From a bacterium (GTDB taxonomy: Bacteria; Patescibacteriota; Minisyncoccia; Moranbacterales; UBA2206): DNA of 64,000 nucleotides. Position numbers and translations under genes: made by a program. Shown here one piece after another: positions 6,934-23,826 of the stretch. Under the pieces are notes generated by a model. It made no database searches and had not been told where the DNA came from. It worked only from the letters and a program-made list of their open reading frames with translations. Positions within the stretch are counted from its first letter, which is position 1. Every line of letters begins with the position of its first letter. The DNA is taken from positions 41,413-105,412 of the forward strand of contig JAJYGF010000013.1 of NCBI GenBank assembly GCA_021785125.1. The letters are read 5' to 3'.

Positions 6934-7482
6934 TCAGATGGGGCAGGTACCGCCTTCTATGAGTACCTTGGCAACGCGCCGGTGGTTTGAACTTTTCATC
7001 GATATGGTGCGATACCTTTCTTTCATCGCTTTTTGCTTTTCTTCTTTTGCCACAATCCGCAAGGGTGTTTCCGGCGGATCTTCCATACAAACATGGGAAT
7101 AAGCGGACCGAATCAAATCGGAAGGTCTGGCTGGTTGGTAAGTGCTTCGCCCTTCTTGTTCGCTTGTGCGGACAATGAGAAAATCTTCTCGTGACATGCA
7201 CATACGATTTACGATTTTAACAAGGTTTGTTTTCGGCAGGCCGATGCAATCGGTCCAGTGGGGAAATCTGCGCCTGAAATATGAGTAAAGCTCATCGATG
7301 CTTTTCGGATAGTTGCTTATGAAGCGTTGGAGCGCTTTCATTCTTATATAACCGATATGCACGAAGTTCCATGCACCACCCAGTTCGCCGAGAACAGCCT
7401 CCTGTTCGTTGTTAAAGATCTTGATGGCGGAAAAATTTTCGTATCCCGTGTAATACTTTATCTTGCCGATCTCTGCCACCAT
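6934..7482 (-). CDS. Hypothetical protein, possibly 5' portion of a frame-disrupted gene
   Basis: AGGAGG RBS precedes internal ATG (MVAEIGK...); downstream, two further frames (6809..7201 and a 32-codon ORF ~6713..6811) continue without intergenic space, suggesting frameshift decay. Confidence 0.3.
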   Translation of the reverse strand: MVAEIGKIKYYTGYENFSAIKIFNNEQEAVLGELGGAWNFVHIGYIRMKALQRFISNYPKSIDELYSYFRRRFPHWTDCIGLPKTNLVKIVNRMCMSREDFLIVRTSEQEGRSTYQPARPSDLIRSAYSHVCMEDPPETPLRIVAKEEKQKAMKERYRTISMKSSNHRRVAKVLIEGGTCPI

Positions 7483-7635
7483 GACTGCCTCCTTTGGCAA
7501 AATGGGGTTCAAGAATTAATGTTTTCTTAATCTTAAGCTAACAGCAAAAGATCTGTCAAATAGATCATCAATCTTATTTTAATGGAAATATCCAACTAAC
7601 AAGTGTTTCTAAGGTATAAAAACAAAGCTTGTCGT

Positions 7636-7666
7636 AGCCTTATTTTAATTTGTACCGCGTAGGGGA
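7636..7666. repeat. Degenerate copy of tRNA-Glu 3' end plus flanking island-end sequence (copy C)
   Basis: agccttattttaatttgtaccgcgtagggga resembles copy at 9747..9782 and the tRNA-Glu 3' end at 11353..11373; marks GC-content transition. Confidence 0.5.
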
Positions 7667-7734
7667 CAAGTTCAGAACTCTCGATTGGGTTAAGATTAGT
7701 AAAGAATTGCGGATATGGATGGATTTGAAAAGTA

Positions 7735-8769
7735 TTACTGCTTAATATTAATGCCAGTATCAGCAATAGTATTCAAAATATCGTTTGAATTGATAACAAA
7801 TCCAATGAACCTTTCGAATCCTACTCCAAATCCACCACGCACTAAATCGCCCTCTTCTTTAAACAAATTAAAGTACTCTTCAAATGGCATTATTGGGTCC
7901 TGATTCTTATCAGCGATAAATTTTCCTATTTTTGAATTCAAAAGATATTTTTTGATTTTATCGCCATCTTCTTCGCGTACTGCGCCACCAACCGTTTCGC
8001 CTAGAGGAGGGAGAAGCAAATCGAAACTAAATGTTTTTTGACCATCCTTTGTGCGTTTCATATTAAAAAATTTCAGCTTTGTTGGGTGATATGTTATAAA
8101 TGTTGGCACATTATTAAATGACTGCAGAATAAATCTTTCTTCCCTAATTCCCATGTCGTCACCGAATTTATAATGATTCAGATACTTTTTATTAAGTATG
8201 TCTATGGCTTGGTCATATGTAATAATGTTGAAAGGAATATGCGTGATTTTCTGCAAATAATCAACATCTCCTCCAAGTAAACTAAGTTCCCTTCGATTTT
8301 TTAATAATAATTCATCCGTAACTGTTTTAATTATTTGTTCTGCCTGCTTTATGATATTATTCAAAACTCTTTCAGGTTTTTGATTGCCATAAGGTCGTTC
8401 CGGTTCAATAAGGGTAAACTCAGAAAGTCTTCGATTTTTTGATTCTGGATCGTCGTAATTTTCTTCTCTAAAGCTATTATTGACAGTATAAAATCCTTTT
8501 CTTAGGCGCAGGACCAGCGCCTCAAGTTGTAGTTGGGCGCTTTGTGACAAATGGGCCTCACGGCCATAATAGTTCAACTTGAACGAGGCGTGAGGATTTT
8601 CGCAAGAGCCTGCAATATTTACTAGTGATGCCGTTGCAACCTCGTTGTATCCCAGCTTGCACAGTTCCTCGCGAAACGCAAGAAGTGCATTCGTTCTTAT
8701 GGAAGTCAGGGCGGCAAATCTGTCTTTGCTGAAAGTTCCCAGCCTTGTGGTAAAATTATCCTTTTGCAT
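7735..8769 (-). CDS. AsnRS/AspRS-like class II catalytic-core paralog lacking anticodon-binding domain (AsnA-like aspartate-ammonia ligase type)
   Basis: Class II motif 2-like FREENYDD...EFTLIEPE and motif 3 GGFGVGFERFIGFV; parallels aspS in this window (FITYHPTKLKFFNMKR vs FLTHYPSAIRPFYSMP) but starts directly in the catalytic domain. Confidence 0.65.
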   Translation of the reverse strand: MQKDNFTTRLGTFSKDRFAALTSIRTNALLAFREELCKLGYNEVATASLVNIAGSCENPHASFKLNYYGREAHLSQSAQLQLEALVLRLRKGFYTVNNSFREENYDDPESKNRRLSEFTLIEPERPYGNQKPERVLNNIIKQAEQIIKTVTDELLLKNRRELSLLGGDVDYLQKITHIPFNIITYDQAIDILNKKYLNHYKFGDDMGIREERFILQSFNNVPTFITYHPTKLKFFNMKRTKDGQKTFSFDLLLPPLGETVGGAVREEDGDKIKKYLLNSKIGKFIADKNQDPIMPFEEYFNLFKEEGDLVRGGFGVGFERFIGFVINSNDILNTIADTGINIKQ

Positions 8770-8937
8770 AATGTTTAAATGAAATTATTTCTTAATAGGG
8801 TAATTATCGAGTCTTAATGTCAAATTAGTCAACACTAATTTTAATTATTTATATTAAATAAGCCAAAATATGCTAATATATAATAAATTGGCGTCAAAAA
8901 TATTGACATTTATTATTTAAAATGCTAACGTTTATCC

Positions 8938-9687
8938 ATGGATATCAAAGCGACTTTACAAAAAATAGGCTTGAGTAAAAAAGAGGCAGATATATATTTG
9001 ACCTGTCTTGAATATGGCCCCACGACCATTACAAATATTGCCAGATTGTCCGGCTATAAACGGCCGACACTTTACAATTTAATGGAAGGATTACTGCAAA
9101 AAGGATTTGTAATTATAGTTAGAAGAAATAGTAAAACATACTATGATGTCGAGAAGCCAAAGCGCTTGCTTACTGTTTTACATGCCAGGGAAAAGGAGTT
9201 AGAGCAAGCGTTGCCAGAGCTGGAAATAATTAAAAATCGCAAACAGCCGCTACCGGAAGTAGAGATATACGATGCTGATGAGGCAATAAAAAATTTATAC
9301 GATGATATTTATAACCAATTAAACAGTCGTACTGAAACTTGTTTTCTTACTTCAATTTCTGATCTAAAAACGTATGCCCCGCATATCCTAGAGTCATATA
9401 TGTCGAAAATTAAAAATAAAAATTATATTATAAGGGAATTAATCTTTGATGATGAACAGGGTTGCAAATATGCCAAGGAAATGAAGGCATTAAATATTAA
9501 ACATGAAATAAGATTATTGCCGAACGATTTTCCAATATACAATGATATTGCTTTATATAATGGGAAGGTTTCAATTTTTTCTTTTAAAATACGCAGTTCA
9601 GCAACTATGATCGATAATTTGGAAATTGCCGCAACACTTAAAAGTCTGTTTGAATGGGCTTGGGTTAATGGAAAAAACATAAAATAA
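8938..9687 (+). CDS. TrmB-family transcriptional regulator
   Basis: N-terminal wHTH LSKKEADIYLTCLEYGPTTITNIARLSGYKRPTLYNLMEGLLQKGFV typical of TrmB; divergent to AsnA-like gene. Confidence 0.65.
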   Translation: MDIKATLQKIGLSKKEADIYLTCLEYGPTTITNIARLSGYKRPTLYNLMEGLLQKGFVIIVRRNSKTYYDVEKPKRLLTVLHAREKELEQALPELEIIKNRKQPLPEVEIYDADEAIKNLYDDIYNQLNSRTETCFLTSISDLKTYAPHILESYMSKIKNKNYIIRELIFDDEQGCKYAKEMKALNIKHEIRLLPNDFPIYNDIALYNGKVSIFSFKIRSSATMIDNLEIAATLKSLFEWAWVNGKNIK

Positions 9688-9746
9688 GCATTCAGCATAA
9701 GAAGTTCTGACATCCCTTTGGGGTATAAAAAAATAAGCCTCAAAAA

Positions 9747-9782
9747 AGCCTTGTTTTAATAGTACCGCCAAGGGGATTCGAA
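9747..9782. repeat. Partial direct repeat of tRNA-Glu 3' end (21/21 nt gtaccgccaaggggattcgaa) with shared upstream extension (copy B)
   Basis: Identical to 11353..11373; preceded by agccttgttttaat also present in copy C. Confidence 0.7.
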
Positions 9783-10101
9783 ACACTAGAAACTTCGTCT
9801 CATCAAGCCTCTATTAGAAGGAAAATTGGCCCATCTAAGCCTCAAGATAAGTTTTCAAGTATCTACAGGCGAAAACAAAAAAGAACTCATTTTACCATTT
9901 TTTTAGTCACAATAGCGTCACAGTTTTTTTGCGCTAAAGAATGACGGGTAGGTTTTTAATGTCTAGCCAAAAGTCACATTGTGCCTTATTCTTTCTATAG
10001 ACCAGGATGTACTTCTTCTATTACTTTTTTGTCAAAATATCTGCAAAAACTCTATTACCGGTTGCAGAAGCATATAAGTTTAGTTATTAACGAAAATAGA
10101 T

Positions 10102-10434
10102 TTACACGTTTGCTCTGGCCGCAAAATTAAAACTATAGAAATAATTCTGCCAGGACTGATCGCCTGAGTGATATTCGTTTGAGAATATAAAATAGTCGGC
10201 TAACATCTCTCTGAGTCTTAATAATTCTCTAAGATGTTTTTTGTTTTTCTTATCGGCGATAGTTAAATCCAAAAGTTCCAAGGCGCGATCAAAAGCCATG
10301 ACGCAATATACTTGATTTCTTTTGTTCTTCCACTTGATAGCTCGCTCGACCTCGCTACCAATATTGGCCATTTGATCAAATAGTTCCATTTCATTCCAGC
10401 GACCAGAAGCTAATTGTTGATGTTGGTGATTCAT
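10102..10434 (-). CDS. Hypothetical small protein (downstream member of pair, possible toxin/HEPN-like)
   Basis: 110 aa, basic, RELLRLREML...H region; operon geometry typical of TA modules. Confidence 0.25.
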   Translation of the reverse strand: MNHQHQQLASGRWNEMELFDQMANIGSEVERAIKWKNKRNQVYCVMAFDRALELLDLTIADKKNKKHLRELLRLREMLADYFIFSNEYHSGDQSWQNYFYSFNFAARANV

Positions 10435-10772
10435 TTTTCTATCAATTTATTTACAATTTTTATAATTTCCTCTTGTATTCTTTCATCATCCACTCCTCGG
10501 CTTCGATTACCCTGAGAAGGACGAAGATTGATCATAGAATCAAATTCAATAAAATCATCACCAGCCATTTCTGGATAGATGTTTATGCCCCACAGATTCT
10601 TCTGTTGTGATCCATTTTCTATAAGCAATGCTTCTTCATCCGCATGAAGTTCGCCATCCACTGCCATAATGTCCTTTTCCACGTCAACTACCGCCTTAAC
10701 TAAATTCCCGAACATCTTTTGTGACATTTCCTTGAGTTCTCCAATTGTTATTTTGTCTTTGATTATTTTCAT
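10431..10772 (-). CDS. Hypothetical small protein (upstream member of overlapping pair, possible antitoxin-like)
   Basis: 113 aa acidic protein; 4-nt ATGA overlap with downstream 110-aa ORF. Confidence 0.3.
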   Translation of the reverse strand: MKIIKDKITIGELKEMSQKMFGNLVKAVVDVEKDIMAVDGELHADEEALLIENGSQQKNLWGINIYPEMAGDDFIEFDSMINLRPSQGNRSRGVDDERIQEEIIKIVNKLIEK

Positions 10773-10919
10773 AAGTTCTTATTTATTAATACATTCTGAT
10801 TCTATTTCATTTTGGTAGTTTTGGAAAGTTTGGCTTAAATAAAAGAAAAAGCCGAGAGAGATTTCTCAGTCGGCTTTATAGGCTTTATTGCATTGGTTAG
10901 TTTCCCTACCGGCTTTTGA

Positions 10920-11243
10920 TCTGAAATTCAATCAGGGTGCCTTCTTCTCTTTACTGTCAGTAAGGAGAAGCCCTATAAAAAAGAGCAGCTGATACCAACA
11001 AAAAGAAAACCCAGTCTCTTCGATAGGAGCCTATTAAGGGATAAACTCCCCGAGGCATTTGTATTCACGAAGATGCGTACAGGCACGCACGACGGGAATG
11101 GTTTGTTATACATTCGGGCAAGATATTATTCACCTTCAATTGGCAGGTTCATAACAAAGGATCCGTTCAAGGGCGATGACAGAAGCACTCAGGGCTTGAA
11201 CAGATATATTTATGCGCTGAATAATCCGGTCCGGTTATTGTGA
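10920..11243 (+). pseudogene. RHS/YD-repeat core C-terminal fragment (no start codon, no toxin tip)
   Basis: Open frame without ATG encodes ...GLLYIRARYYSPSIGRFITKDPFKGD...NRYIYALNNPVRLL*, the hallmark RHS-core terminal motif (YxRARYYDPxxGRFxxxDP). Confidence 0.6.
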
Positions 11244-11353
11244 CAAAGAAGTGATGAAACGGGTCTTTTCCTGCGACGAATAATAATGAGTAAGAATTGA
11301 GATATTGGCTTTAGATAAGACAGAATGCGGTCTGAAGAGTCTTATCTCGTTTG

Positions 11354-11429
11354 TACCGCCAAGGGGATTCGAACCCCTGATTTCCAGGATGAAAACCTGG
11401 CGTCCTGGACCGGGCTAGACGATGGCGGC
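11354..11429 (-). tRNA. tRNA-Glu (anticodon UUC)
   Basis: GCCGCCATCGTCTAG... anticodon stem CCAGG/CCTGG loop TTTTCAT, T-arm CAGGGGTTCGAATCCCCT; strong resemblance to bacterial tRNA-Glu; CCA not encoded. Confidence 0.8.
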
Positions 11430-11563
11430 ATGGTCTGAAACATTCAGAATAACAGTAGGAATCATAGCATAAAACAAAAATAAATCAAGATTCGGCCGGT
11501 TTCATCCATCTGAAGTATATTCCAATCCTAAGAAGATACCGAAATCATAATTGGGGTTTTCGA

Positions 11564-12811
11564 TTAATTTGTTAAACCCCGGTTAATTTTTTTGAATAAT
11601 TCGTCTTTGGCTTGCATCATCTTTTTTCCAAAATCATTATCGCTTTCCGCATAAGCGATTTTATCCAAATCTTCAAAAGTTATTCCCGCTTTCAAATATT
11701 GAGAGGCCTGATCCAGCGACTTGAATTTTTCGTATGGAGTGAGAGTGATGTTGTATTTCTTTCGTATTTTTCCTTTTGCATCAATTCTTTCTTCAGCGAA
11801 CAAGCAGGGCCGGTGATAGTTGAGGTAAACGTTTACGTACGCGCGGTTGAACTCTTCGATCAATGACGCAAACTTTTGATCGATGAAATTTCTGCCGTAC
11901 AATTTTCTCACGATGCTGCCATTCTTTGATTCCACCAGAGCATTGTCATTGGTATGCCTGGCCCGGGATTTGCTTTGTTCGATTAAAAGTTCGGTCAGAA
12001 GCTCGGCCACAATCCTGTTGAGATATTCACTGCCGTTGTCGGAATGAAATTCGTAAACCTTGAAAGGAAACAATCCTAACAATTCTTTAAGCACCGGCTT
12101 CAAAAAATGATGGCTTATGCCCTCGACTGTGGCTATCATCTCATACTGCGTAACTTCGTCAACGAGATTGATATGGTAAACACCCTTCACTTTGTCTAAA
12201 TCACCCTGATGTACGCTGTCTACGCGCAAATAGCCGGGCTTGCCGTAAGGATTGGGCTTTCTCCTGATTCCGATATTTACATTTGTAGTCGGCGTATGCT
12301 TAAAAAACAGAGCCGGAGAACTTTTGTACTGTCGATTGTGATTGCGGAGATTGTACAGATGGGAGATTGAAATCCTGGCAATATTTGCGTATTCTTTTTT
12401 GCCAAAAATTTCTGATTCGCGGCGCAGGATTTCCTTGGTGGCTTTGCCGTTCAAGCATTGGTGGGTGATATCCGTATCAATCAGCCGCTCTATGTCAGTC
12501 GCGAAATATTTTACCGGAAATTTGTTTCGTTTTCTTCCCGGATTCCAGAAAAGAAGTCCTTTGCGCCAACGGTTAACCAATTTTTTGGTGTGTCCTCGGG
12601 AATAGCCGGTTAAAAATTTCAGATACCGGATGACAATTGCTTTTTCTTTTTTTCTAAGCTTAGCATACCCGGTCTTAATCAATACGGTTTTCAAAAACTC
12701 ATATTTTTCCGGATCGCTCCCGATCTCCATTTGGATGAAGTCGTTGGACTTCAAAAACTCCTCCATCTGGCCTATACTGCCAGTAGGCAAGTTATTCATA
12801 TTGATGTTCAT
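11564..12811 (-). mobile_element. DDE transposase, integrase-core (rve) type, IS481-like
   Basis: N-terminal HTH region, then catalytic core YHINLVDEVTQY...HSDNGSEY...NALVESKNGSIVRK (D,D,E triad context). Confidence 0.75.
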
Positions 12812-12924
12812 ACCTCCAATTATGAATATGACTTGCCTTCCTACAAAGTGAGCCTTTTCGGGCTCATTTTGTGTTGGAACGGAAACTCATTTGGGTATCA
12901 TCTTGCATTGAACAAGACTAAAAG

Positions 12925-12953
12925 TTGACATTTTGTGGTAAATAATTTATTAT
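12925..12953 (+). promoter_or_regulatory. Sigma-70-like promoter (TTGACA-17-TATTAT) upstream of MAT-like operon
   Basis: Consensus -35 and near-consensus -10 with 17-nt spacer, ~38 nt upstream of start codon. Confidence 0.45.
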
Positions 12954-12990
12954 CAACTGAAACAAAAAACAGGTAAATATTAATAATCTT

Positions 12991-14286
12991 ATGGACAAGA
13001 ATATATATTTGCATGAGAATTCTTCAATAATAGCCTTAGATCCAAATGAAGCTAGTTTTGAAGTCGTAGAAAGAAAATTCCGTGGTCATCCTGACTCAAT
13101 GGCCGATATGGTGGCACAGTCATTTACACAGAAATATATCAAGAGTGCGTGGGAAAAAATACCTGAACTTTCCAATATTTATTTTCCAAATTTTTCTTCA
13201 GACAAAGTAGTTTTATCTGGTGCAAGTACAAGGTGTGTAAATGGAAAATGCGAAATTATTAAGCCGGTAGATGCTTTGCTCATAGGCAAAATAACAGAGA
13301 AAATTGGAAATATAGAAATAGATATAGATGCAATTTTTAAAGATTCCGTTGAAACTGTATTAAGCAGATGTCTAGGACACAATGATTTCAAGCCATATGT
13401 AAATAGAAAGACATATTCAATATCATTCGCAGGAGCTGACCATGATAAGGGATTTTACAATCCAAGTTCAGTAGCTGATTTGTTGAAAATACTTAAAAAT
13501 GAGACACATGCAAATGATACGGTTTATGTTGTAGCGTATTCACCATTAAGTGTATCAGAAAAGCTTGTAATCTATCTGGATAATCTTACGGCATCAAAAG
13601 AATTCAAAAAGTTATTTCCAGAGATTGGTTCGGATATTAAAGCGATGGTTCGCAGAAGATCATCGGATTTCGAAATCACAATGTGTTTACCGGTTTTTCC
13701 AGAAAAAATTCAAGATAATCAGCTATATAATCGTATCATTAAAGAAGCTACAAAATATATCCATAAAGAAATTATCCTCTTTCTTGAAAAAAACACTCGA
13801 TATTTCAAAAAACCAACAATAAAACTGTGGACTAATACTAAGGATACAAAGGATAAAAAATATTATGCAATTTGGGGTACCGCTCTTTCAAAAGGTGACG
13901 TTGGGGCGGTTGGACGTGGAAATCGGCAACAAGGATTTATAAGTGGCGTGCGGCCAAGCACGAATGAGGCTATGTCGGGAAAAAATCCAAATCATTTTGC
14001 GGGAATTGTGTATCAGCTTGTTGCAGAAAATATCTCAAAATTGATTTTTGACGAACTTGGGCAAAAAAACGCCATATACATTACTGCGAACAATGGAGAT
14101 TTTTTAGAACATCCGAATTCTATAGATGTAATCCTAGAAAAAAATAGCTTATATCAAAAAGAAGCAATTTCTAAAATCGTAAAAAAATCATTAAAGTTGA
14201 TCCCTGAGTTCCGCATGAATTTCATAAATTCTGATCCATACGAGAGATTCATGAGTTCCAATATGCTTTCACGTAAGGTTAAATGA
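12991..14286 (+). CDS. Archaeal-type S-adenosylmethionine synthetase (MAT) homolog
   Basis: VERKFRGHPDSMADMVAQ, HANDTVYVVAYSPLSVSEKLV, GDVGAVGRGNR...GVRPSTNEAMSGKNPNHFAGIVYQ all parallel archaeal MAT (MJ1208-type) motifs. Confidence 0.8.
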   Translation: MDKNIYLHENSSIIALDPNEASFEVVERKFRGHPDSMADMVAQSFTQKYIKSAWEKIPELSNIYFPNFSSDKVVLSGASTRCVNGKCEIIKPVDALLIGKITEKIGNIEIDIDAIFKDSVETVLSRCLGHNDFKPYVNRKTYSISFAGADHDKGFYNPSSVADLLKILKNETHANDTVYVVAYSPLSVSEKLVIYLDNLTASKEFKKLFPEIGSDIKAMVRRRSSDFEITMCLPVFPEKIQDNQLYNRIIKEATKYIHKEIILFLEKNTRYFKKPTIKLWTNTKDTKDKKYYAIWGTALSKGDVGAVGRGNRQQGFISGVRPSTNEAMSGKNPNHFAGIVYQLVAENISKLIFDELGQKNAIYITANNGDFLEHPNSIDVILEKNSLYQKEAISKIVKKSLKLIPEFRMNFINSDPYERFMSSNMLSRKVK

Positions 14287-14430
14287 TTCGATGAGGTTAA
14301 TAGTTATAGCGAAAAGAATCGATTAGATTTTTTTCGCTGCAACTATACTATTTTGATAGTTGGAGTTGATCATTGACAATTTAAAAATAAGACAGTAAAC
14401 AACAAACAACAAAGAAAGGAGTTGAGAGGC

Positions 14431-15900
14431 ATGGCTTACAGAGATGCAGACAAGGTGATATCTAGAATTGGTATAACACCAGTAGGAAGTGCGAAGTATC
14501 GCGTCAATAGATTGCGGTTTCATCTTTTAGCCTATGCAATAACAAGAAAGTTCCAGTTGGCTGGAAAAGAAGCCGCATTTTTTATAAGATGCGATGACAC
14601 TGACAGTAGTAATGTAAATCTTGCATTTCTAGATTCGTATCTGGAAGTGCTGTTCTCATTGGGAGTTGTGCCGAATTTAACCCCCTATGACAAAGATAGT
14701 GGGGGCTTCTCCCTTTTCCAGTCCAAAAGAGGCGATCTTTATAAGATGTTTATAGACCGTCTTTTGGAATCCGGCTTGGCATTTAAGGATTCTACCGGGG
14801 CAATCTTTTTTCACACAGAAGAGTTTTCGAGGAGATTTCAGGGTTTATTAACAGATAATAAACTTGAAGTTGAGGATGCTTCAATCGGAAGCTTCGCTGT
14901 TGATATCCGAACTCCGCTGAAAGAAAAAAGCGGTAAAATTGGGCTGATTTCATTTCCCTTAGTGCGAGCAAATGGAACATATCTCTTCAGTCTGTGTTCG
15001 CCAGTGGACGATGGGGTGATGGGAATTACACATGTTGTAAGGGACCGGGATAAACTCGATTTACTTTCGAGACAGGAAATGGTTAGGATTTCACTGGGAT
15101 TTCCGTCCATAACATATGTCCATGTTCCGTTGCTTGTTAACCAAGACGGCAAGAGATTTGTTTGTGATGAGTACTGGGGAGATGCTACATTTCAGGATTT
15201 TGTAGCCAAAGGAATATTTCCCAAGGCGTTAGTGTCGTATCTTCTTTCTGGATTCTTTGGTCCGTCAGAGAAGTATTACTCATCAATTGAAGATTTTGCT
15301 TCCCAAATAAATCTTGGGCGACTTCATCAGTCCAATACAGTCTTTGATGAGTCGGTTCTTAAGCAACACAACAAAAAAGCATTGGAAGGTTCTTCGGTGC
15401 TGGAGTACGAAACAGCACTAAAAAACTTCCTTGCTGGCGATAACCCAGTGGCCCTTGATTGTCTTAAATCAGATTCAGATATGCTGGAAATGATGATAAG
15501 AATGAAGAGGGGGCTATCAGAAACAGGCGACATTATCCATAGCTTGTCTCAATTTCTGCACGACGATCCGGACATCAAGCACATAAGAATACTAAATACG
15601 ATTATCACCTTCTTTTTACAGAAAGAGAGTGGGATGCGGGATCATTCTTGTGCAAATTTCATGCTTGAAATGGCTACGGAGCATGCGAAAAACCTTGGTA
15701 CTTCCAGAAAGGAATATTATAAGGCGTTAAGATATATTCTTACTGGCAAATACCAAGGGTGTGATTTGCATGAGGTAGTGGGGTATCTGGAAAAGAAGGG
15801 AGTTGTGATGGCGAGGATAAAAGCTACAAGAAACGAGCTGATAAAACGCAATCTCCTAATGGAATCTAGGAGTCACACTTTAAGCAGGAGGTTAGAATGA
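14431..15900 (+). CDS. Glutamyl-tRNA synthetase paralog with degenerate HIGH and KMSKS motifs
   Basis: Collinear with GluRS: RIGITPVG|SAKYR (PSPTG|xxHIG position), FFIRCDDTDSSN (RIEDTDxxR), ITHVVRDRD (THVIRGEDH), LVSYLLSGFFG (LxNYLxxLGWS); KMSKS position reads GKRFV; AAAGGAG RBS 9 nt before ATG at 14431. Confidence 0.7.
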   Translation: MAYRDADKVISRIGITPVGSAKYRVNRLRFHLLAYAITRKFQLAGKEAAFFIRCDDTDSSNVNLAFLDSYLEVLFSLGVVPNLTPYDKDSGGFSLFQSKRGDLYKMFIDRLLESGLAFKDSTGAIFFHTEEFSRRFQGLLTDNKLEVEDASIGSFAVDIRTPLKEKSGKIGLISFPLVRANGTYLFSLCSPVDDGVMGITHVVRDRDKLDLLSRQEMVRISLGFPSITYVHVPLLVNQDGKRFVCDEYWGDATFQDFVAKGIFPKALVSYLLSGFFGPSEKYYSSIEDFASQINLGRLHQSNTVFDESVLKQHNKKALEGSSVLEYETALKNFLAGDNPVALDCLKSDSDMLEMMIRMKRGLSETGDIIHSLSQFLHDDPDIKHIRILNTIITFFLQKESGMRDHSCANFMLEMATEHAKNLGTSRKEYYKALRYILTGKYQGCDLHEVVGYLEKKGVVMARIKATRNELIKRNLLMESRSHTLSRRLE

Positions 15901-16787
15901 AAACCGTGTTAAAGGTTGGTAGGTATAACGTGATGCTTGTAGTTGCAGATAGTCTCAGATATGATCTGGCTCAAAAGGCTAAGACTCCATTTCTGAACAA
16001 GCTCTCGGCACTAAGATTGGCAGAGGCACCTGCGACATACACACTGCCATCACACATGTCTTTCTTTGTTGGCATTCTCCCTGTATTGATTGATGGTAAT
16101 CCCGAATTTTTGCCGGGAATTCGTCAGCTCTGGAGGTCTGTTAATGCCAGGGAAAGCGATAAATCGTCCGCCGTTATTTTTCAGGGAGAAACAATTATCG
16201 ACTACTACGTAAGGAATCAATATGAAGTGCTTGGTGCGGGGGGCGTGTCCTTTTTCAGTGGGGCCAAAGATAATATTTTGCCCAAGCTTTTTCCAAAGTT
16301 TCTTCACTTTGAAAAGCCGGCAAACTTACCAAGGGATGCCAACGTGCCTCGCAACATGAGACAATTTCCACTGGCAAACATCGGAAGACTTATGGATAAT
16401 CTGAATTTTTCAAATCCATTTTTCCTTTTTATTAATTGTCCTGAAACACATATGCCCTATGATTCTCCCGGCGTTGAAATTACGGAGAGTTATAAAATGG
16501 CGATAAAAAAACTTTACGCCATTGACAATGTCAAACATTGTCCGGTAAGGGATCAGGATAAGTTGACGGAAGAGGAGAGGCGGATACTAATGGATGCCCA
16601 GAGACAATCGCTCGAGTGGATAGATCGGATGACTGAGGATCTGCATAGCAGAATACACAACGGACTACCTACGCTCGTGGTTGTCATGGGAGATCATGGT
16701 GATGAATTCGGAGAAGGAGGAAGGTATGGCCATGCTCATTACCATTCTTCAGTAATGCATGTCCCACTTTGGTGTGGTATGCTATGA
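15897..16787 (+). CDS. Alkaline-phosphatase superfamily enzyme, type I phosphodiesterase/nucleotide pyrophosphatase-like
   Basis: VVADSLRYD metal-site Asp, Thr nucleophile context ATYTLPSHMSFF, distal MGDHGDEFGEGGRYGHAHYH metal ligands; 4-nt overlap with upstream gene, GGAGG RBS. Confidence 0.65.
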   Translation: MKTVLKVGRYNVMLVVADSLRYDLAQKAKTPFLNKLSALRLAEAPATYTLPSHMSFFVGILPVLIDGNPEFLPGIRQLWRSVNARESDKSSAVIFQGETIIDYYVRNQYEVLGAGGVSFFSGAKDNILPKLFPKFLHFEKPANLPRDANVPRNMRQFPLANIGRLMDNLNFSNPFFLFINCPETHMPYDSPGVEITESYKMAIKKLYAIDNVKHCPVRDQDKLTEEERRILMDAQRQSLEWIDRMTEDLHSRIHNGLPTLVVVMGDHGDEFGEGGRYGHAHYHSSVMHVPLWCGML

Positions 16788-16800
16788 TAAGGAGTAAGAA

Positions 16801-17416
16801 TATGTTCAACGGAAATATGTATAAAAAGGTCATACTCAACGGTGGTTACCCGGATAGGGCCCCAGATGGCGGACTTGCTTTCTGTAGGGAAGTAACAGGT
16901 GGACTGAGTCAGCCGGTGAAAATTTTGGAATGCCTTTTTGGGCGGGAAAAGAATACTTGGGATTCAGCTCTTAAAAAAGATGTTGAGCTGTTTCACAATG
17001 TATTGGCAGGTGTTCAGGTTGAATTTCAGATAGCCAAAGAAAGAACGCTTGTTGACCAGATTGGATGGGCAGATGTAGTTTACTTTCGTGGAGGTTACAC
17101 CCAAAGACTTTATGATGTTCTTAGTGTCATTCCTCAATGGCAGGATGCGTTAAAGAATAAAGTTGTTGTCGGGTCTTCTGCCGGTGCGTATATACTTTCA
17201 GAAGTATATGTTCATGCTGCAGAAAAGCCTGAGGCAAGAAAGGGATTTGGCCTGGTCCAAATTAAAACAGTTGCCCATTATCGTTCGACATTTTTCCATA
17301 ATGGAGATCACGATAAGGCACGACAATATTGGGACATGGTTGATGAACTTCTTGAAAATTTAGGCCCTCACTTGGAAATGATGAAGCTGGGAGAGGGCGA
17401 ATTCAGAGTTCTGTAA
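16801..17416 (+). CDS. S51-family peptidase (PepE alpha-aspartyl dipeptidase / cyanophycinase-like)
   Basis: Nucleophile elbow VVVGSSAGAY (GxSAG), upstream GGYTQRL; AAGGAG RBS 6 nt before ATG at 16801. Confidence 0.6.
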
Positions 17417-17437
17417 TCCCTTTATTATCAACAATTA

Positions 17438-17477
17438 GGCGGGGTACTTCCTTGGAAGATATCCCGCTTTTATTTTG
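17438..17477. terminator. Rho-independent terminator after S51 peptidase gene
   Basis: GGCGGGG...CCCGC stem with T-run. Confidence 0.5.
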
Positions 17478-17561
17478 TAAATTAAAAAATTGTAGGTTAA
17501 AGTTTTATGTAATTTATGTCTTCAGATTTAAATCTGGAATGTAAACATACTCATTTCTTTT

Positions 17562-17648
17562 CATAAAAATAGTTCTAACATCATTTACTACCCCGTGCTT
17601 TGAAAGTTTTGTCAAAATTGAGGCTTGCAGAAGCCTCTTTTTTGGTTC
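17562..17648 (+). repeat. ~85-nt intergenic repeat element, copy 1 (ends in hairpin GAGGCTTGCAGAAGCCTC + T-run)
   Basis: Shares cataaaa(a)tagttctaac...aaggctt..agcct..ttttt with copy at 19093..19168. Confidence 0.55.
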
Positions 17649-17705
17649 TAACTTTTATAATACTTACTTTAAAAATGCCCGATCTATTGAACCATTACGT
17701 TGCTA

Positions 17706-17735
17706 TTGACAACTTATAAAAATTTATGCTATGGT
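17706..17735 (+). promoter_or_regulatory. Sigma-70-like promoter (TTGACA-18-TATGGT)
   Basis: Consensus -35, ~50 nt upstream of 17788 start with AAGGAGG RBS. Confidence 0.4.
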
Positions 17736-17787
17736 AATGGACTGATTGTGTTGTATCTGAAACAAATCAAAAACCAAGGAGGGACAT

Positions 17788-18342
17788 ATGCAAGACAAAG
17801 AAGAAAGGGTTCTTTCAAAAAAGGAAAAGCGGTTACTGGCAAACGCAAACCTGACACCTAGGGTAGAAAGGTTTGTCCGAGGGATATGGTCCAAAGAAAA
17901 GGAACCTGCTGCCAGCGGAGTGATAGGCGGAATAATAACTTCTGTCATCGCTGTAGCGTTGATACCCACATTGATTTTCATCCTGGGTGCCAACATTTTC
18001 CACTGGGCCTCAGTTCCGAAGGGCTTCGAGAACATAGCCTTTTTCGTAATATGGATACTCTTCGTGGTCGTAGCGCTGATATTTTCTATCGCGCGGTATT
18101 TCATGGTAAATGATATGGAGCCTTCCTCTATTTTGAGCTACCAGTCGATAAAAACCCTGGTGGGCGGCAACATATTCTATGCATATTACTCGAGGCTAAC
18201 GGTCTTAGTTCTCATCTGTCTGATTGCGTATAGAGGAGAGCTAATTACAGCCGCCGCCTTGCTCATAGTGTGGATAATCGGACTTGCATCAAACTCAGCG
18301 CTAAAAGGCAGGATTAAAACGGCAATAGAAGCGCTGGAATAA
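17788..18342 (+). CDS. Hypothetical polytopic membrane protein
   Basis: Strong RBS AAGGAGG; four predicted TM helices; terminator hairpin 18365..18406 downstream. Confidence 0.5.
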   Translation: MQDKEERVLSKKEKRLLANANLTPRVERFVRGIWSKEKEPAASGVIGGIITSVIAVALIPTLIFILGANIFHWASVPKGFENIAFFVIWILFVVVALIFSIARYFMVNDMEPSSILSYQSIKTLVGGNIFYAYYSRLTVLVLICLIAYRGELITAAALLIVWIIGLASNSALKGRIKTAIEALE

Positions 18343-18478
18343 CAGTTTCTGCCCATAACTAAAAAACGGGAAGCTTGGTCAACATTGCCACTTCCCGTTT
18401 TATTTTTGAAAAATAAACTCCTTCGAAGATTCGGAGCGTGTGATTAATAAATTTTAAAGAATATTGTATTATTGTCAT

Positions 18479-19078
18479 ATGAGCAAAATACATACAACCG
18501 ATAAGCTTATAATTTTTGAGGATATTAAGAGTCCGCAAGAGCTGTTGGCTTTTATGAAGAAAAATATAGCATATGGTTTTATTGGGAAAAGCAATCGAAG
18601 GGTATATTCTTCGAAGGATGATATGTATGATAATTTTAGCAATGAATATTTTTTGCAAAGTCCTGAAGAATTGATAAAAAGTGGACACGGGGTTTGTTGG
18701 GATGACGCTGAGCTAGAAAGACATTGGTTTGGAAAAAATGGTTATAATTTTAAAGTATTTTTTATAATCTTTAATAAGGAATATGAAAACAATTTGCCAA
18801 CACATTCTTTTTTGGCTTACATGGAAAGGGATAAGTGGTTTTGGTTTGAATATTCATTTAGTGTCCATAGGGGTATCCATGAGTATGATAGTTTGGAAGA
18901 TTTGATTTCGGATGTAAAGAAAAAACATTTCGATTATGCCATTAAACATCGCGAAGCAACGATTGAAGATGAGAAAGATTTGATGATTTTCGAATTTGAA
19001 AAACCAAAATATGGCTCAAGCCCACAAGGATTTGTTGATCAGGCTATGGGTGGAAAAGTAATTACTTTAGAAAATTAG
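18479..19078 (+). CDS. Hypothetical protein with candidate Cys/His catalytic pair (transglutaminase/papain-like fold?)
   Basis: GHGVCWDDAE Cys context and downstream THSFLAY His; start ambiguous between 18464 and 18479. Confidence 0.3.
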   Translation: MSKIHTTDKLIIFEDIKSPQELLAFMKKNIAYGFIGKSNRRVYSSKDDMYDNFSNEYFLQSPEELIKSGHGVCWDDAELERHWFGKNGYNFKVFFIIFNKEYENNLPTHSFLAYMERDKWFWFEYSFSVHRGIHEYDSLEDLISDVKKKHFDYAIKHREATIEDEKDLMIFEFEKPKYGSSPQGFVDQAMGGKVITLEN

Positions 19079-19092
19079 GCAGTCCTTTTTAC

Positions 19093-19168
19093 TCATAAAA
19101 TAGTTCTAACGTCCCTGACCGTGGTGTGCATTTAAATTCAAGGCTTGTTTGAGCCTTGTTTTTGTTTA
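19093..19168 (+). repeat. ~85-nt intergenic repeat element, copy 2 (ends in hairpin AAGGCTTGTTTGAGCCTT + T-run)
   Basis: Homologous to 17562..17648. Confidence 0.55.
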
Positions 19169-19296
19169 GGGTGGTGGGAAGTTAGAATTAAAATATAAAA
19201 CACTTGCTTTTTTAGTTTTTTTACACTAACCTTTTTGATATGGTAAAGGACATTCCAAACTAAATAAGAGGAGATAAAACGTGGATACGACGGATA

Positions 19297-19626
19297 ATGG
19301 TTAAAATAGACTTGCGTGGGAAGACGGCAGAAGAAGTCGCTGCTTTAGTCAAGAAACACGACTTTGGAACCGGCGAAATCGGCAAGGGAACGCATCTGTG
19401 GTTGCCGCTGTCTCTAGAATACAAAGAAGTCGTTATAGTTTGGCTTAATGACAAGGCGGCAAGTTGCTACAAAAAAGACAAGGGTGATTTGCCAGCCAAA
19501 GTCACCTACACTTTATGGAACGGAAAAGAGTCTCAGCCAAGGCAAGGGGATGACCTTCATGGTTTCATCAAGGTAGATGGCGGCATAGACTGGGGTAAGG
19601 CACATACAATGAACCTTATGCGGTAA
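19297..19626 (+). CDS. Hypothetical protein
   Basis: 109-aa ORF, higher GC than neighbours. Confidence 0.3.
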   Translation: MVKIDLRGKTAEEVAALVKKHDFGTGEIGKGTHLWLPLSLEYKEVVIVWLNDKAASCYKKDKGDLPAKVTYTLWNGKESQPRQGDDLHGFIKVDGGIDWGKAHTMNLMR

Positions 19627-19671
19627 AGTTTATAACCATAAACATTCTATTCTTCCGAAAGGAGACAGGCT

Positions 19672-20373
19672 ATGACTATTAAGAAAGATAAAGGAGGAGT
19701 TGGGGAGGCAGAAACGAAACTGCGTGTAATTGGTGCGGACGAAATGCTCTCGCTGTCTCTGCCAGCAACACTGGTTTTGACAGATAAGACGGATGAGAAA
19801 ACTCCCGCAGGATTTCAGAAAGTCCTTGTGGGCGGCGTGCTGTTTGCTCCTGGGAATATACTCGGCGACGACGATGTGGTCAGGCTGGACTGCCAGATTA
19901 TAATTGTGCCGAAAAGGAGGAGAGGAGGATATAAATACAAAGGCGCAACCCTGGAGATTATCTTGACCGATTCGGAGGCGAGTTTTGCCAAAGATGAGAA
20001 CTGGTCAAGGGAGATGCCTTTTGAAAAGACCTGTGACAAAGGTTTCGATATCGAGAAGGCCGTAGAAGTGGCTGGCAAGATGATGGATAGGTGTATGCGG
20101 GAAAGCCGTGCGAGATATAAGAGGTTATGCGACCTACTTATCCCGCTTCTCACACCCAAGACCGTCAGCAAGATTATAAAAAAGAAAAAGGAGGACTATG
20201 TTTTTTACAAACAGACACCGCCTTCGGATGACAGGCTCTTACGGGACCATCTCGAACATCTGATAAACGAGTTCGACTGCAATATCCACTACCTGGAGGA
20301 TAGCGAGATGGCCGACTTCGCCAAGACGGTTAACAAAAACCATTCGCCTGTTTTCTATGACGGGCTGGATTAA
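19672..20373 (+). CDS. Hypothetical protein
   Basis: AAAGGAGA RBS 7 nt upstream; 233 aa; followed by two hairpin terminators. Confidence 0.45.
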   Translation: MTIKKDKGGVGEAETKLRVIGADEMLSLSLPATLVLTDKTDEKTPAGFQKVLVGGVLFAPGNILGDDDVVRLDCQIIIVPKRRRGGYKYKGATLEIILTDSEASFAKDENWSREMPFEKTCDKGFDIEKAVEVAGKMMDRCMRESRARYKRLCDLLIPLLTPKTVSKIIKKKKEDYVFYKQTPPSDDRLLRDHLEHLINEFDCNIHYLEDSEMADFAKTVNKNHSPVFYDGLD

Positions 20374-20526
20374 GCTTCGGAAGGCAAAACGAAGACAGTT
20401 AGGAGGGATTTGGTTGTAGAATTATTTGCAATTTAGATCCCTCTTTTTATTTTTCTCTAAATATATAGTGAGTAACCCCCGTGAGGCCTCTTTTTTGTTC
20501 CAATTTTTTTGTGATAAAATAGACAC

Positions 20527-21237
20527 ATGAAAACAAAAAAGAGAAAAAGAAAAAATAACAGAAAGGTCATGGCGGTTATTGTCGGAATATCGGTGCTGGC
20601 GGTGATCATCGGCTGGTCGATCTGGTTCAGCTATCGAAAGCCGCAGACTGTCTGGCAAGACCTGTTGTCGCGTGTCGGATATGACAGGCCGGCCGCGGAC
20701 GCATCAAGCCAGACCGTCTTTTTGGGAGACAGCATCACGGCGCATGAGGATTGGGGCGTGCTGTTCGGAGTTACATTCATTATGAATGATGGCATTTCAG
20801 GCGATACGACGGATGATGTTTTGGCCAGATTGGATCCGGCCACGAGTGCCAAGCCCAAAAAATTATTCCTGATGATCGGTATCAATGATTTTTTGCGGGG
20901 AAAAGACGTCGCTTATGTCTGGAACAATTATCAGAAAATAATAAGCGGGATACGGTCGGAATCGCCCGATACGACCGTTTATATGCAAAGCGTTCTGCCG
21001 GTGAATAACGATATTTCAAAATTAAGATATGGGACGGTGGATCCGCAAAAGATTCTGGAGCTGAACAACAAGATTAAGTCATTGGCGGATGGCAACAAGC
21101 TTATCTTTCTTGATTTGTATCCGTCTTTCTGCGGTTCCGACAATAAATTATACCCGCAATACTCCGCGGACGGATTGCATCCCAATTCCCACGGCTATGC
21201 TCTTTGGGAAAAATTGATAGCCCCATATGTGAAATAA
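20527..21237 (+). CDS. SGNH/GDSL-family hydrolase with N-terminal signal anchor
   Basis: Blocks FLGDSIT (Ser), GINDF (Gly/Asn), DGLHPN (Asp-x-x-His). Confidence 0.75.
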   Translation: MKTKKRKRKNNRKVMAVIVGISVLAVIIGWSIWFSYRKPQTVWQDLLSRVGYDRPAADASSQTVFLGDSITAHEDWGVLFGVTFIMNDGISGDTTDDVLARLDPATSAKPKKLFLMIGINDFLRGKDVAYVWNNYQKIISGIRSESPDTTVYMQSVLPVNNDISKLRYGTVDPQKILELNNKIKSLADGNKLIFLDLYPSFCGSDNKLYPQYSADGLHPNSHGYALWEKLIAPYVK

Positions 21238-23412: not shown

Positions 23413-23826
23413 ATGCCTATGAATGCATGTAGTAGTACGGAAAATTTTGGTGAGCATGTAATGATTGATGGATATGGCGGAGATCCCGAAAGATTAAACG
23501 ATAAGGATTTGGTAATGCTTTCTCTTGTGGAATTGCCTCATCAGCTTGGAATGAAAAGATTGTCGGATCCATTAGTGCTTGAAGCTCAAAGTAATAACGC
23601 TAAAGACCCTGGAGGATGGAGCGGGATTGTCATTATTGCGGAAAGCCATATTAGTGTTCATACTTTTCCAAAGAGGAAGTTTGTTAGTATTGATGTTTAT
23701 ACATGTATGAATGGTTTGAATCGCGATTTTATTAAAAATTATTTTCGAGAGATATTTAAATTGGAGGATATTGAGGAAAATTTTGTGCGGAGGGGAACGC
23801 GATATCCTATGCACAATCTTTGTTAA
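23413..23826 (+). CDS. speH: S-adenosylmethionine decarboxylase proenzyme (small pyruvoyl type, SpeH-like)
   Basis: MIDGYGGDPERLND, cleavage/pyruvoyl site AESHISVHTFPK, VSIDVYTC. Confidence 0.8.
   Translation: MPMNACSSTENFGEHVMIDGYGGDPERLNDKDLVMLSLVELPHQLGMKRLSDPLVLEAQSNNAKDPGGWSGIVIIAESHISVHTFPKRKFVSIDVYTCMNGLNRDFIKNYFREIFKLEDIEENFVRRGTRYPMHNLC

Follow-up and report, generated by a model that had tools for sequence, protein, structure and literature searches.

A gene cassette conserved among candidate phyla radiation bacteria pairs a MAT-like protein with a glutamyl-tRNA synthetase paralog lacking both ATP signature motifs, and possibly encodes an adenosine-amino-acid conjugate pathway

Repurposed paralogs of aminoacyl-tRNA synthetases (GluQRS, cyclodipeptide synthases, MshC, PoxA, and AsnA) have repeatedly yielded new chemistry. 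GluQRS (YadB), with about 300 amino acids, keeps the ATP motifs of glutamyl-tRNA synthetase (GluRS) and lacks its anticodon-binding domain. Cyclodipeptide synthases have a Rossmann fold like that of class I synthetases but have lost the ATP signature motifs, and they act as ATP-independent transferases that use aminoacyl-tRNA. Here we describe a GluRS paralog with the pattern opposite to that of GluQRS, encoded in a four-gene cassette at positions 12991 to 17416 (forward strand) of a 64,000-nucleotide stretch of the Patescibacteriota contig JAJYGF010000013.1, which as a whole is referred to as the window. The four co-oriented open reading frames (ORFs) code for a methionine adenosyltransferase (MAT)-like protein, the paralog, a hydrolase of the alkaline-phosphatase superfamily, and an S51 peptidase, as follows.

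12991 to 14286, forward strand, MAT-like protein, 431 amino acids (PF01941, 1.5e-60)
14431 to 15900, forward strand, GluRS paralog, 489 amino acids (PF00749, 4.6e-15)
15897 to 16787, forward strand, alkaline-phosphatase-superfamily phosphoesterase, soluble, 296 amino acids (PF00884, 2.4e-7)
16802 to 17416, forward strand, S51-family serine hydrolase, 204 amino acids (PF03575, 2.7e-8)

None of the four proteins reaches an NCBIfam equivalog cut-off, and each differs from its closest described relatives. The paralog shares end-to-end homology, fold, and a helical anticodon-binding domain with bacterial GluRS (gltX), but is without HIGH and KMSKS and has a shorter connective peptide. Cyclodipeptide synthases are a conceptual analogue of the paralog in mechanism only, with homology neither tested nor claimed; they differ in having TyrRS/TrpRS-type folds, about 230 to 300 amino acids, and no anticodon-binding domain. 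The MAT-like protein has the fold and ATP-side motifs of the archaeal-type MATs of Methanocaldococcus jannaschii, Pyrococcus furiosus, and S. solfataricus, to which it is about 25% identical, but it has a polar pocket and two insertions, and it is bacterial, accessory, and always paired with a GluRS paralog. The S51 protein shares PF03575, the GxSAG motif, and the His and Glu residues with peptidase E and cyanophycinase (MEROPS S51), from which it differs in its short length, its score below the equivalog cut-off, and its membership of a tiny subfamily restricted to the cassette. The hydrolase has the metal-ligand motifs and Thr nucleophile position of the sulfatase/phosphoethanolamine-transferase branch (EptA and MCR-1), but is soluble, has neither a membrane domain nor a formylglycine motif, and scores below the cut-off for the STM4013 family.

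The combination of these genes is conserved. We searched the GluRS-like protein against 5.8 billion proteins and ran same-sized searches for the MAT-like and S51 proteins. The first yielded 31 close clusters, followed by an abrupt fall to canonical GluRS, with the few named sources being metagenome-assembled genomes (MAGs) of Patescibacteria or Saccharibacteria and one MAG binned as 'Deltaproteobacteria'; the MAT-like search gave about 50 clusters, many of them from contigs of equal length, and the S51 subfamily only 12. Among the MAGs with the cassette are JAJYBC01, JBBTZY01, JAKBHL01, JAITKM01, and CAYMCH01. Eleven distinct loci besides the window form the main family (n = 12), which was scored by tblastn and by clustering of all ORFs; a metagenome contig scan contributed only two loci. 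The S51 gene is present in all 12 main-family loci including the window, the MAT-like gene in each of the 10 that have enough upstream DNA, and the alkaline-phosphatase-type hydrolase gene in 8 of 12. At least four distinct gene orders occur: MAT, GluRS, hydrolase, S51 in the window and in L007, L009, L011, and L017; a hydrolase divergent from MAT, GluRS, and S51 in L015; MAT, hydrolase, S51, GluRS in L016; and MAT, GluRS, S51 in L018. In L006 and L008, a HAD hydrolase and a small AAA_18-type P-loop protein stand in place of the hydrolase, with a Nudix gene also present in L006; Nudix genes lie near the cassette again in L011, L014, and L018. Beyond the core genes and Nudix, clustering of the ORFs of these loci gave no further recurrent gene family. 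Identity among loci is 54 to 70% for the MAT-like proteins and 28 to 55% for the GluRS paralogs. There is thus strong evidence that the grouping is a functional unit, because its co-occurrence survives rearrangement among proteins that are 28 to 70% identical. A first reading of the DNA made without database searches (the sequence-only reading) had proposed that this is a non-random combination, and its persistence in divergent genomes and reshuffled orders bears that out.

The MAT-like/GluRS-like pair is the core of the cassette, since it is kept in three of the four extended-family loci (L019, L021, and L022) while the S51 gene is absent from L019. Literature searches returned no publication relevant to the grouping of MAT-like, GluRS-paralog, and S51 genes in the candidate phyla radiation (CPR), and the cassette is real, conserved, and undescribed. 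It appears to be a horizontally mobile accessory element of CPR/Patescibacteria, and it is spread over several lineages. The settings are mobile or variable, with integrases in L019 (two of phage type, 3 kb away), recombinase, Fic, and GNAT genes in L018, and an insertion sequence (IS) and an RHS fragment in the window. A phage origin was considered and rejected: no relative of the paralog was found among IMG/VR viral contigs, and the matches in a phage collection are canonical-type GluRS with 20 to 26% identity.

The paralog scores 55.8 bits against PF00749 (cut-off, 23.4) and does not match PF19269, and its score against TIGR00464 (gltX_bact) is 131.4 bits, with a cut-off of 289.95. In the family alignment, the HIGH position holds K-Y-R-x-N-R-L-R-F-H with a two-residue insertion and the KMSKS position holds G-K-R-F-V-x-D, the latter being deleted in P0030 and P0031. 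The substituted residues are conserved in turn: R24, R29, and H31 do not vary, and D246 hardly varies. A profile search of 1.84 billion representatives with the paralog family recovered the main-family representatives together with 39 further ones (P0113 to P0151; weakest, 183 bits), and a motif census by regular expression found HIGH and KMSKS both absent in all 31 main-family and all 39 extended clusters, with HxGx/KxSKx resuming at the next match. The motif degeneracy first read from the window copy thus extends to about 70 cluster representatives. The extended clade keeps the RxDDT, QSxR, and DD motifs as well as R12 and R204, the equivalents of Arg5 and Arg205 of Thermus thermophilus GluRS, which we take to be glutamate binding. 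The equivalents of Tyr187, Asn191, and Trp209 are F, S, and K, respectively, and K208, QEMxR, and SY are clade-specific invariants. The C-terminal LTG motif is conserved, and the connective-peptide region lacks about 30 residues relative to canonical GluRS.

The profile of the paralog aligns end to end with positions 7 to 463 of Thermotoga maritima GluRS2. An AlphaFold2 (AF2) model of the paralog (pLDDT, 91.3; pTM, 0.86) has only full-length bacterial GluRS among its best 42 PDB matches, with 8jpv on top (TM score, 0.73/0.80 over 482 columns). Because the full fold is present and the replacement residues are conserved, the paralog appears from its model to be a complete GluRS body with a rebuilt ATP site, rather than a decaying pseudogene or GluQRS. 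Canonical ATP-dependent adenylation should be impossible for it, since both signature motifs are replaced by other conserved residues. Assignment as GluQRS was rejected separately on the basis of the 489-residue length, the presence of the C-terminal domain, the loss of the motifs, the GluQRS model scores of 36 to 69 bits versus at least 250, and the TMq of 0.43 to the GluQRS structure. We also note that P0132, P0144, P0150, and P0155 have Trp where their relatives have conserved Gly (e.g., WNLWIWALRSH). The clade probably reaches code 25 lineages of the Gracilibacteria/Absconditabacteria type, because UGA-encoded Gly read as Trp gives this Trp-for-Gly pattern.

A canonical gltX accompanies the paralog at two of the extended-family loci. 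L019 codes for a P-loop protein, the MAT-like protein, the GluRS-like protein, and a hydrolase, followed by a convergent canonical GluRS, and in L020 the paralog is immediately upstream of one.

L019, 9351 to 11096, reverse strand, canonical GluRS, 581 amino acids (LMHIGVLRT and KLSKRHG present)
L020, 6942 to 8381, forward strand, canonical GluRS, 479 amino acids (HIGH and KMSKS intact)

This direct adjacency suggests that the paralog arose by tandem duplication of gltX.

The MAT-like protein scores 205.6 bits against PF01941 (cut-off, 27), and its best NCBIfam MAT equivalog is NF003362, at 252.3 bits against a cut-off of 481. Its AF2 model (pLDDT, 84.6) matches P. furiosus MAT (6s81) in Foldseek with TM scores of 0.81/0.87, while bacterial MetK structures reach only about 0.5. 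In the M. jannaschii enzyme (MjMAT), Tyr273 and Asp146 bind adenine, His58 is a ligand of the methionine carboxylate, and Leu147 and Ile351 form a hydrophobic pocket (PMC9298006). We aligned about 60 clade members with the M. jannaschii (Mj), P. furiosus (Pf), and S. solfataricus (Ss) MATs and mapped residues to MjMAT numbering. The ATP-side residues are kept in all clade members, namely GHPD, the GDxGxVGRGNR triphosphate loop, and the adenine-binding Asp146 and Tyr273, and the ANDT motif is kept as well. On the methionine side, HHNxD is replaced by PNFSxDK (His58 to Asn), D-L by D-H or D-R (Leu147 to His or Arg), and SQIG(K/R)P by ANNGDxL (Ile351 to Asn). Two insertions are also present, one of 13 residues that follows the adenine-binding Asp and contains a conserved FYNP, and one of 6 residues before PNFS. 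The longer insertion is modeled as a low-confidence coil (residues 144 to 160), falls where the Mj and Pf sequences differ, and may form a gating loop.

Judged from these alignments, the ATP half of the site appears intact and the methionine half polar. The nucleophile may be other than methionine, and SAM (S-adenosylmethionine) perhaps not the product, because the methionine-side pocket is polar while the ATP half is unchanged. Speculatively, glutamate, which is nearly isosteric with methionine and carries a carboxylate in place of the S-methyl group, is a candidate substrate. The assignment of this protein as an archaeal-type SAM synthetase thus holds for family and fold but is in question for the product, given the remodeled pocket.

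The S51 protein scores 34.2 bits against PF03575 (cut-off, 23.9), and the GSSAG nucleophile motif, the His of VAHY, and the Glu of LGEGEF are kept in all 12 orthologs, in agreement with the earlier peptidase assignment; by position, these would form a Ser-His-Glu triad. The top PDB match is the cyanophycinase-like exopeptidase 6nqc, and the score against the cyanophycinase model TIGR02069 is 16.1 bits, below the cut-off of 126.6. S51 enzymes cleave after N-terminal or beta-linked Asp, and by analogy the specificity would fit a substrate with an acidic aminoacyl group.

The hydrolase matches PF00884 (Sulfatase) at 30.8 bits (cut-off, 25) and the STM4013/SEN3800 family NF038075 at 110.9 bits (6.9e-32; cut-off, 250). 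Salmonella members of the STM4013 family presumably adjoin radical SAM genes, and not MAT or GluRS paralogs. The sequence-only reading had called this enzyme nucleotide pyrophosphatase-like; of the Pfam families it named for the four proteins, PF01941, PF00749, and PF03575 are above cut-off, but PF01663 is not (17.2 bits versus 23, residues 13 to 59 only), although an NPP-like Thr-x-P-x-H motif is nevertheless present. Membership of the alkaline-phosphatase superfamily stands, but the closest relatives are sulfatases and phosphoethanolamine transferases, and the gene is absent from four of the 12 loci. There is an invariant Thr at the nucleophile position (TYTLPSH), with a metal-ligand motif GDHGDEFGEGGRYGHAH and DHG...GH.H ligands. 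In a PDB profile search, in which the top matches are phosphoethanolamine transferases (EptA and MCR-1) and sulfatases, T49 falls where iduronate sulfatase has its formylglycine Cys. The Thr at this position and the EptA and MCR-1 matches point to phosphoryl rather than sulfuryl transfer. That a HAD hydrolase takes its place in some loci argues for a phosphatase role, one that would be useful but nonessential.

Homologs of the MAT-like protein also occur in clusters for small molecules. A tblastn search of plasmids returned 28 records with archaeal-type MAT homologs of about 29% identity, including 11 Bacillus and 5 Streptomyces plasmids. On Bacillus thuringiensis CT-43 plasmid pCT127 (L023), the homolog WP_000028781 is encoded at 11974 to 13215, inside the thuringiensin cluster, in the order Gfo/Idh/MocA oxidoreductase, MAT, hypothetical protein, glycosyltransferase, MFS transporter, nonribosomal peptide synthetase (NRPS), and nucleotide-sugar dehydrogenase. 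It has a long loop insertion at the same site as in the CPR proteins, with WFNP rather than FYNP, and keeps HH and Ile at the pocket positions. The resemblance to the cassette lies in the loop, in an adenosine-containing metabolite pathway, and, taken together with related plasmid cassettes, in kinase, Nudix, or HAD-type accessories; the differences are the low identity, the sugar-enzyme and NRPS partners, the absence of a GluRS paralog or S51 gene, and an unreported role in thuringiensin synthesis (PMC4147579). This homolog is a candidate for thuringiensin adenosyl transfer. HAD, Nudix, and P-loop accessory types are common to the remote MAT clusters and the CPR cassettes, and together with the shared loop insertion this suggests that bacterial MAT-like proteins may be secondary-metabolism adenosyl transferases rather than SAM synthetases.

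Three further clusters were noted. On a plasmid of Streptomyces sp. NBC_00015 (L024, 7973 to 15114), a MAT gene lies among those for a glycosyltransferase, a sugar-phosphate epimerase, a Gfo/Idh/MocA protein, a carbamoyltransferase, and a NUDIX protein, and on a Parageobacillus plasmid (L025, 6856 to 18771), it lies with HAD-IIB, myo-inositol-1-phosphate synthase, AAA ATPase, SurE, and NUDIX genes; both look like uncharacterized nucleoside or sugar pathways. The closest non-CPR homolog of the MAT-like protein (P0099, 44% identity) is in a phosphoenolpyruvate (PEP)-mutase (phosphonate) cluster of B. thuringiensis (L010, GCA_007665345, contig positions 1 to 18285), with genes for an HpcH/HpaI aldolase, transketolase-like subunits, NTP_transf_5, APH kinases, a HAD hydrolase, an ATP-grasp protein, and a carrier protein. 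A literature search on ScmC and the B. thuringiensis phosphonate cluster gave nothing relevant.

The boundaries and setting of the window copy are defined by the following features.

11353 to 11429, reverse strand, tRNA-Glu(UUC), flanking the cassette
11564 to 12811, reverse strand, IS481/rve-type transposase, flanking the cassette
12925 to 12953, forward strand, candidate sigma-70-like promoter, TTGACA-17 nt-TATTAT, a consensus match 38 nt 5' of the MAT-like start codon
14300 to 14346, forward strand, hairpin in the 144-nt spacer between the MAT-like and GluRS-like genes (fold z-score, -4.06)
17439 to 17476, forward strand, terminator-like element, a GC-rich inverted repeat GCGGG...CCCGC followed by TTTTATTTT, read from sequence 3' of the S51 stop codon

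The tight four-gene arrangement described in the sequence-only reading is confirmed by the ORFs and their start sites. The GluRS-like start is corrected to ATG 14431, 9 nt after AAAGGAG; this 489-residue version has an exact match in public assemblies, and the 492-residue version from TTG 14422 is not recorded. An ATGA at 15897 to 15900 gives a 4-nt overlap between the GluRS-like stop and the hydrolase start, which is preceded by AGGAGG, and the most likely S51 start codon is ATG 16802, after AAGGAG. The promoter candidate is the best site in the region, with 11 of 12 consensus matches; however, the 16 promoter-like sites observed there are no excess over the 14.8 expected in shuffled sequence. 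The hairpin is kept in sequence and stem in L007 (at about 4445 to 4500), whose MAT-like protein is 69% identical, and may function as an attenuator or a processing site. Elsewhere, most loci have overlapping MAT-like and GluRS-like genes instead of a hairpin-bearing spacer, with stop and start overlapping in L011, L017, and L018. An Rfam search of the upstream region and spacer, with E values up to 1, matched no riboswitch, T-box, or other family. An automated terminator scan omitted the element at 17439 to 17476 and gave a second hairpin and T-run at 17620 to 17637.

The AT-rich setting beside a transposase and a tRNA-Glu is likewise as first described, with a GC content of 0.38 in 7000 to 19200 versus 0.46 in the remaining window. 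Contigs with identical proteins in public data end 67 to 212 nt 5' of the first gene, as expected beside a repeated IS. The proximity to tRNA-Glu, which the sequence-only reading had noted, is not conserved, and a conserved tRNA-Glu linkage is rejected: tRNA-Glu is near the window copy only, L007 and L009 have a co-oriented tRNA-Asp immediately upstream, and no tRNA is adjacent elsewhere.

We tentatively favor a dedicated pathway for an adenosine-amino-acid conjugate as the role of the cassette, a reading to which we give somewhat less than an even chance. Gene content, conservation, motif states, folds, and non-housekeeping status are observations; the chemistry that we infer from them would run as follows. 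The MAT-like protein would bind ATP, transfer the adenosyl group from C5', and release triphosphate, as its GHPD and GRGNR motifs and its Asp and Tyr suggest. It would probably adenosylate a polar or acidic nucleophile rather than methionine, since the formerly hydrophobic pocket is now polar (Asn for Mj H58, His/Arg for L147, and Asn for I351) and has acquired the loop insertion, or it would only supply SAM to its partner. In the paralog, the former ATP/Glu-AMP site would accommodate the adenosyl compound and an acidic amino acid, either free or carried as Glu-tRNA, and the protein would join or present these two ligands as a transferase that needs no ATP, by the logic of cyclodipeptide synthases. 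The S51 enzyme would cleave off an acidic aminoacyl group in alpha linkage, which could serve maturation, recycling, or self-protection, and interchangeable phosphohydrolases (the Thr-nucleophile alkaline-phosphatase type, HAD, and Nudix) with a small P-loop kinase would process a phosphorylated intermediate or by-product. The specific version in which the MAT fold adenosylates an O or N nucleophile, such as an acidic side chain, and the tRNA-Glu-bound paralog acts on that product as an ATP-independent transferase strikes us as unlikely, if plausible.

Several points weigh against a conjugate pathway. The polar pocket substitutions could still be compatible with methionine, and the alignment at the loop insertion is less certain than at ANNGD/SQIG. 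In the extended family, the L020 paralog is without a MAT-like gene and has a radical SAM gene in the upstream position, and L019 has no S51 gene. The thuringiensin link consists of about 29% identity and gene context, and the published pathway assigns the bond between adenosine ribose C5 and glucose C4 to Thu1, with no MAT among the 11 thu genes (PMC4147579). Finally, the anticodon-binding domain suits a tRNA-directed role at least equally well.

Such a role, somewhat improbable in our estimation but the most serious competitor, would have the paralog recognize tRNA-Glu (or tRNA-Asp or tRNA-Gln) through its anticodon-binding domain and, with the MAT-like protein, modify, block, repair, or trans-acylate this tRNA or the attached aminoacyl group; RNA ends would be the substrate of the kinase, phosphatase, and Nudix proteins, with the S51 enzyme serving in deacylation. 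It draws on the full GluRS architecture with its conserved LTG motif and on the tRNA genes near the cassette in the window, L007, and L009, although most loci have no adjacent tRNA and integration of islands at tRNA genes would account for the adjacency. The pairing of HAD and P-loop proteins resembles polynucleotide kinase-phosphatase end healing, and the best NCBIfam match of the L006 P-loop protein is Ser-tRNA(Sec) kinase (PSTK), but at 27.6 bits against a cut-off of 290. The cassette has no ligase, methyltransferase, or nuclease, the shortened connective peptide is the region that contacts the acceptor arm, and the remote MAT-like homologs are in small-molecule clusters rather than RNA systems.

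A looser association, in which the MAT-like protein is an extra, acquired SAM synthetase, the paralog a dead regulator or stabilizer (likened to the Rossmann-fold MAT2B subunit of human MAT2A) or a sensor of Glu or uncharged tRNA, and the hydrolases passengers, is distinctly unlikely. The intact ATP-side catalytic residues, the paralog's lack of catalytic motifs, the better conservation of the MAT-like proteins than of the paralogs, and the presence of nearby SAM users (an S-adenosylmethionine decarboxylase at 23413 to 23826 and a radical SAM protein at 32707 to 33642) all agree with it. However, H58, L147, and I351 are all polar across the MAT-like clade, the retention of S51 in every main-family locus despite rearrangement is unlike that of a passenger, and the paralog shows no variation in its replacement motifs and Glu-site arginines, as would be expected of a ligand-binding or catalytic site.

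As a special case of the conjugate pathway, the cassette could be a self-protected antimetabolite or defense module, making a mimic of Glu-AMP or SAM that is toxic to GluRS or methyltransferases in a host, competitor, or phage, with the paralog as decoy, carrier, or immunity protein and S51 as an immunity or activating peptidase, as in Trojan-horse synthetase inhibitors. CPR bacteria are episymbionts, the cassette is in mobile or variable regions (the window, L018, and L019), a remote MAT homolog belongs to the gene cluster of thuringiensin, an adenine nucleoside analogue that is toxic, and canonical gltX adjoins the paralog in L019 and L020. We nonetheless consider this quite improbable, as the PADLOC-DB 2.0 component models gave no meaningful match to the four proteins, no copies were found on viral contigs, and the cassette has no conserved exporter.

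An ordinary housekeeping metK-gltX operon of a reduced genome, which the sequence-only reading had rightly disfavored, is scarcely credible and is rejected, for although the Pfam families are those of MAT and GluRS and the remaining window is an ordinary small-genome bacterial chromosome (enolase, iPGM, RecJ, TsaD, and AspRS), the MAT-like protein and paralog are far below equivalog cut-offs, HIGH and KMSKS are missing clade-wide, the family comprises tens of clusters in 5.8 billion proteins despite abundant CPR genomes, canonical gltX lies beside the paralog at two related loci, and the window copy is in an AT-rich, IS-flanked island. A tblastn search for bacterial-type metK in the collected locus DNA found none, but the sequence is too little for this to be informative.

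The window has several other genes near the cassette. On its 3' side (17788 to 21237, forward strand) are genes for a four-transmembrane protein (184 amino acids), a transglutaminase-like DUF553 protein (weak match), two unassigned proteins, and a GDSL lipase, followed by an Acyl_transf_3 gene on the opposite strand. The 17788 to 21237 genes are syntenic only in same-species contigs (L001 to L004) and for this reason are probably outside the functional unit. The S-adenosylmethionine decarboxylase gene (forward strand; PF02675) is 6 kb 3' of the cassette, and the radical SAM gene is also on the forward strand; the organism therefore uses SAM. Neither gene adjoins the cassette in other genomes.

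The same AT-rich island codes (7735 to 8769, reverse strand) for a 344-residue class II catalytic core of the AsnRS/AspRS type without the OB anticodon-binding domain, which scores 165 bits against asnS (below cut-off) and 67 bits against AsnA-type asparagine synthetase, and may be an AsnA-like amidating enzyme; a complete AspRS of the nondiscriminating type is encoded at 35974 to 37293. At 10102 to 10772 (reverse strand), two small genes with a 4-nt overlap, coding for a DUF5674 protein (113 amino acids; 2e-38) and an unassigned 110-residue protein, look like a two-gene module of the island. An orphan RHS repeat-associated core end (11061 to 11243, forward strand; …GLLYIRARYYSPSIGRFITKDPFKGDD…NRYIYALNNPVRLL and stop), without upstream repeats or toxin tip, sits between the DUF5674 genes and the tRNA-Glu.

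The paralog clade is unusual in that the whole tRNA-binding body of GluRS is kept, both class-defining ATP motifs are gone, and the protein is tied to a MAT-like enzyme with a rebuilt pocket. There is a real chance that this combination of a repurposed synthetase paralog and its partner enzymes is a categorically new system, and at three or four genes the cassette is small and directly amenable to heterologous expression. If the proposed roles are true, the CPR GluRS clade would be a first among synthetase paralogs in combining complete tRNA-binding architecture with the absence of both signature motifs, and bacterial MAT-like proteins, including that of the thuringiensin cluster, would be an unrecognized family forming 5'-adenosyl ethers or esters. 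Transfer of adenosine by MAT-like proteins to non-sulfur nucleophiles might explain the bond between ribose-5' and glucose-4 in thuringiensin and would provide a new enzyme family for nucleoside natural products. To our knowledge, almost no secondary metabolism is known in the episymbiotic CPR bacteria, which would thereby gain a small-molecule or tRNA-targeting pathway that may bear on their interaction with the host.

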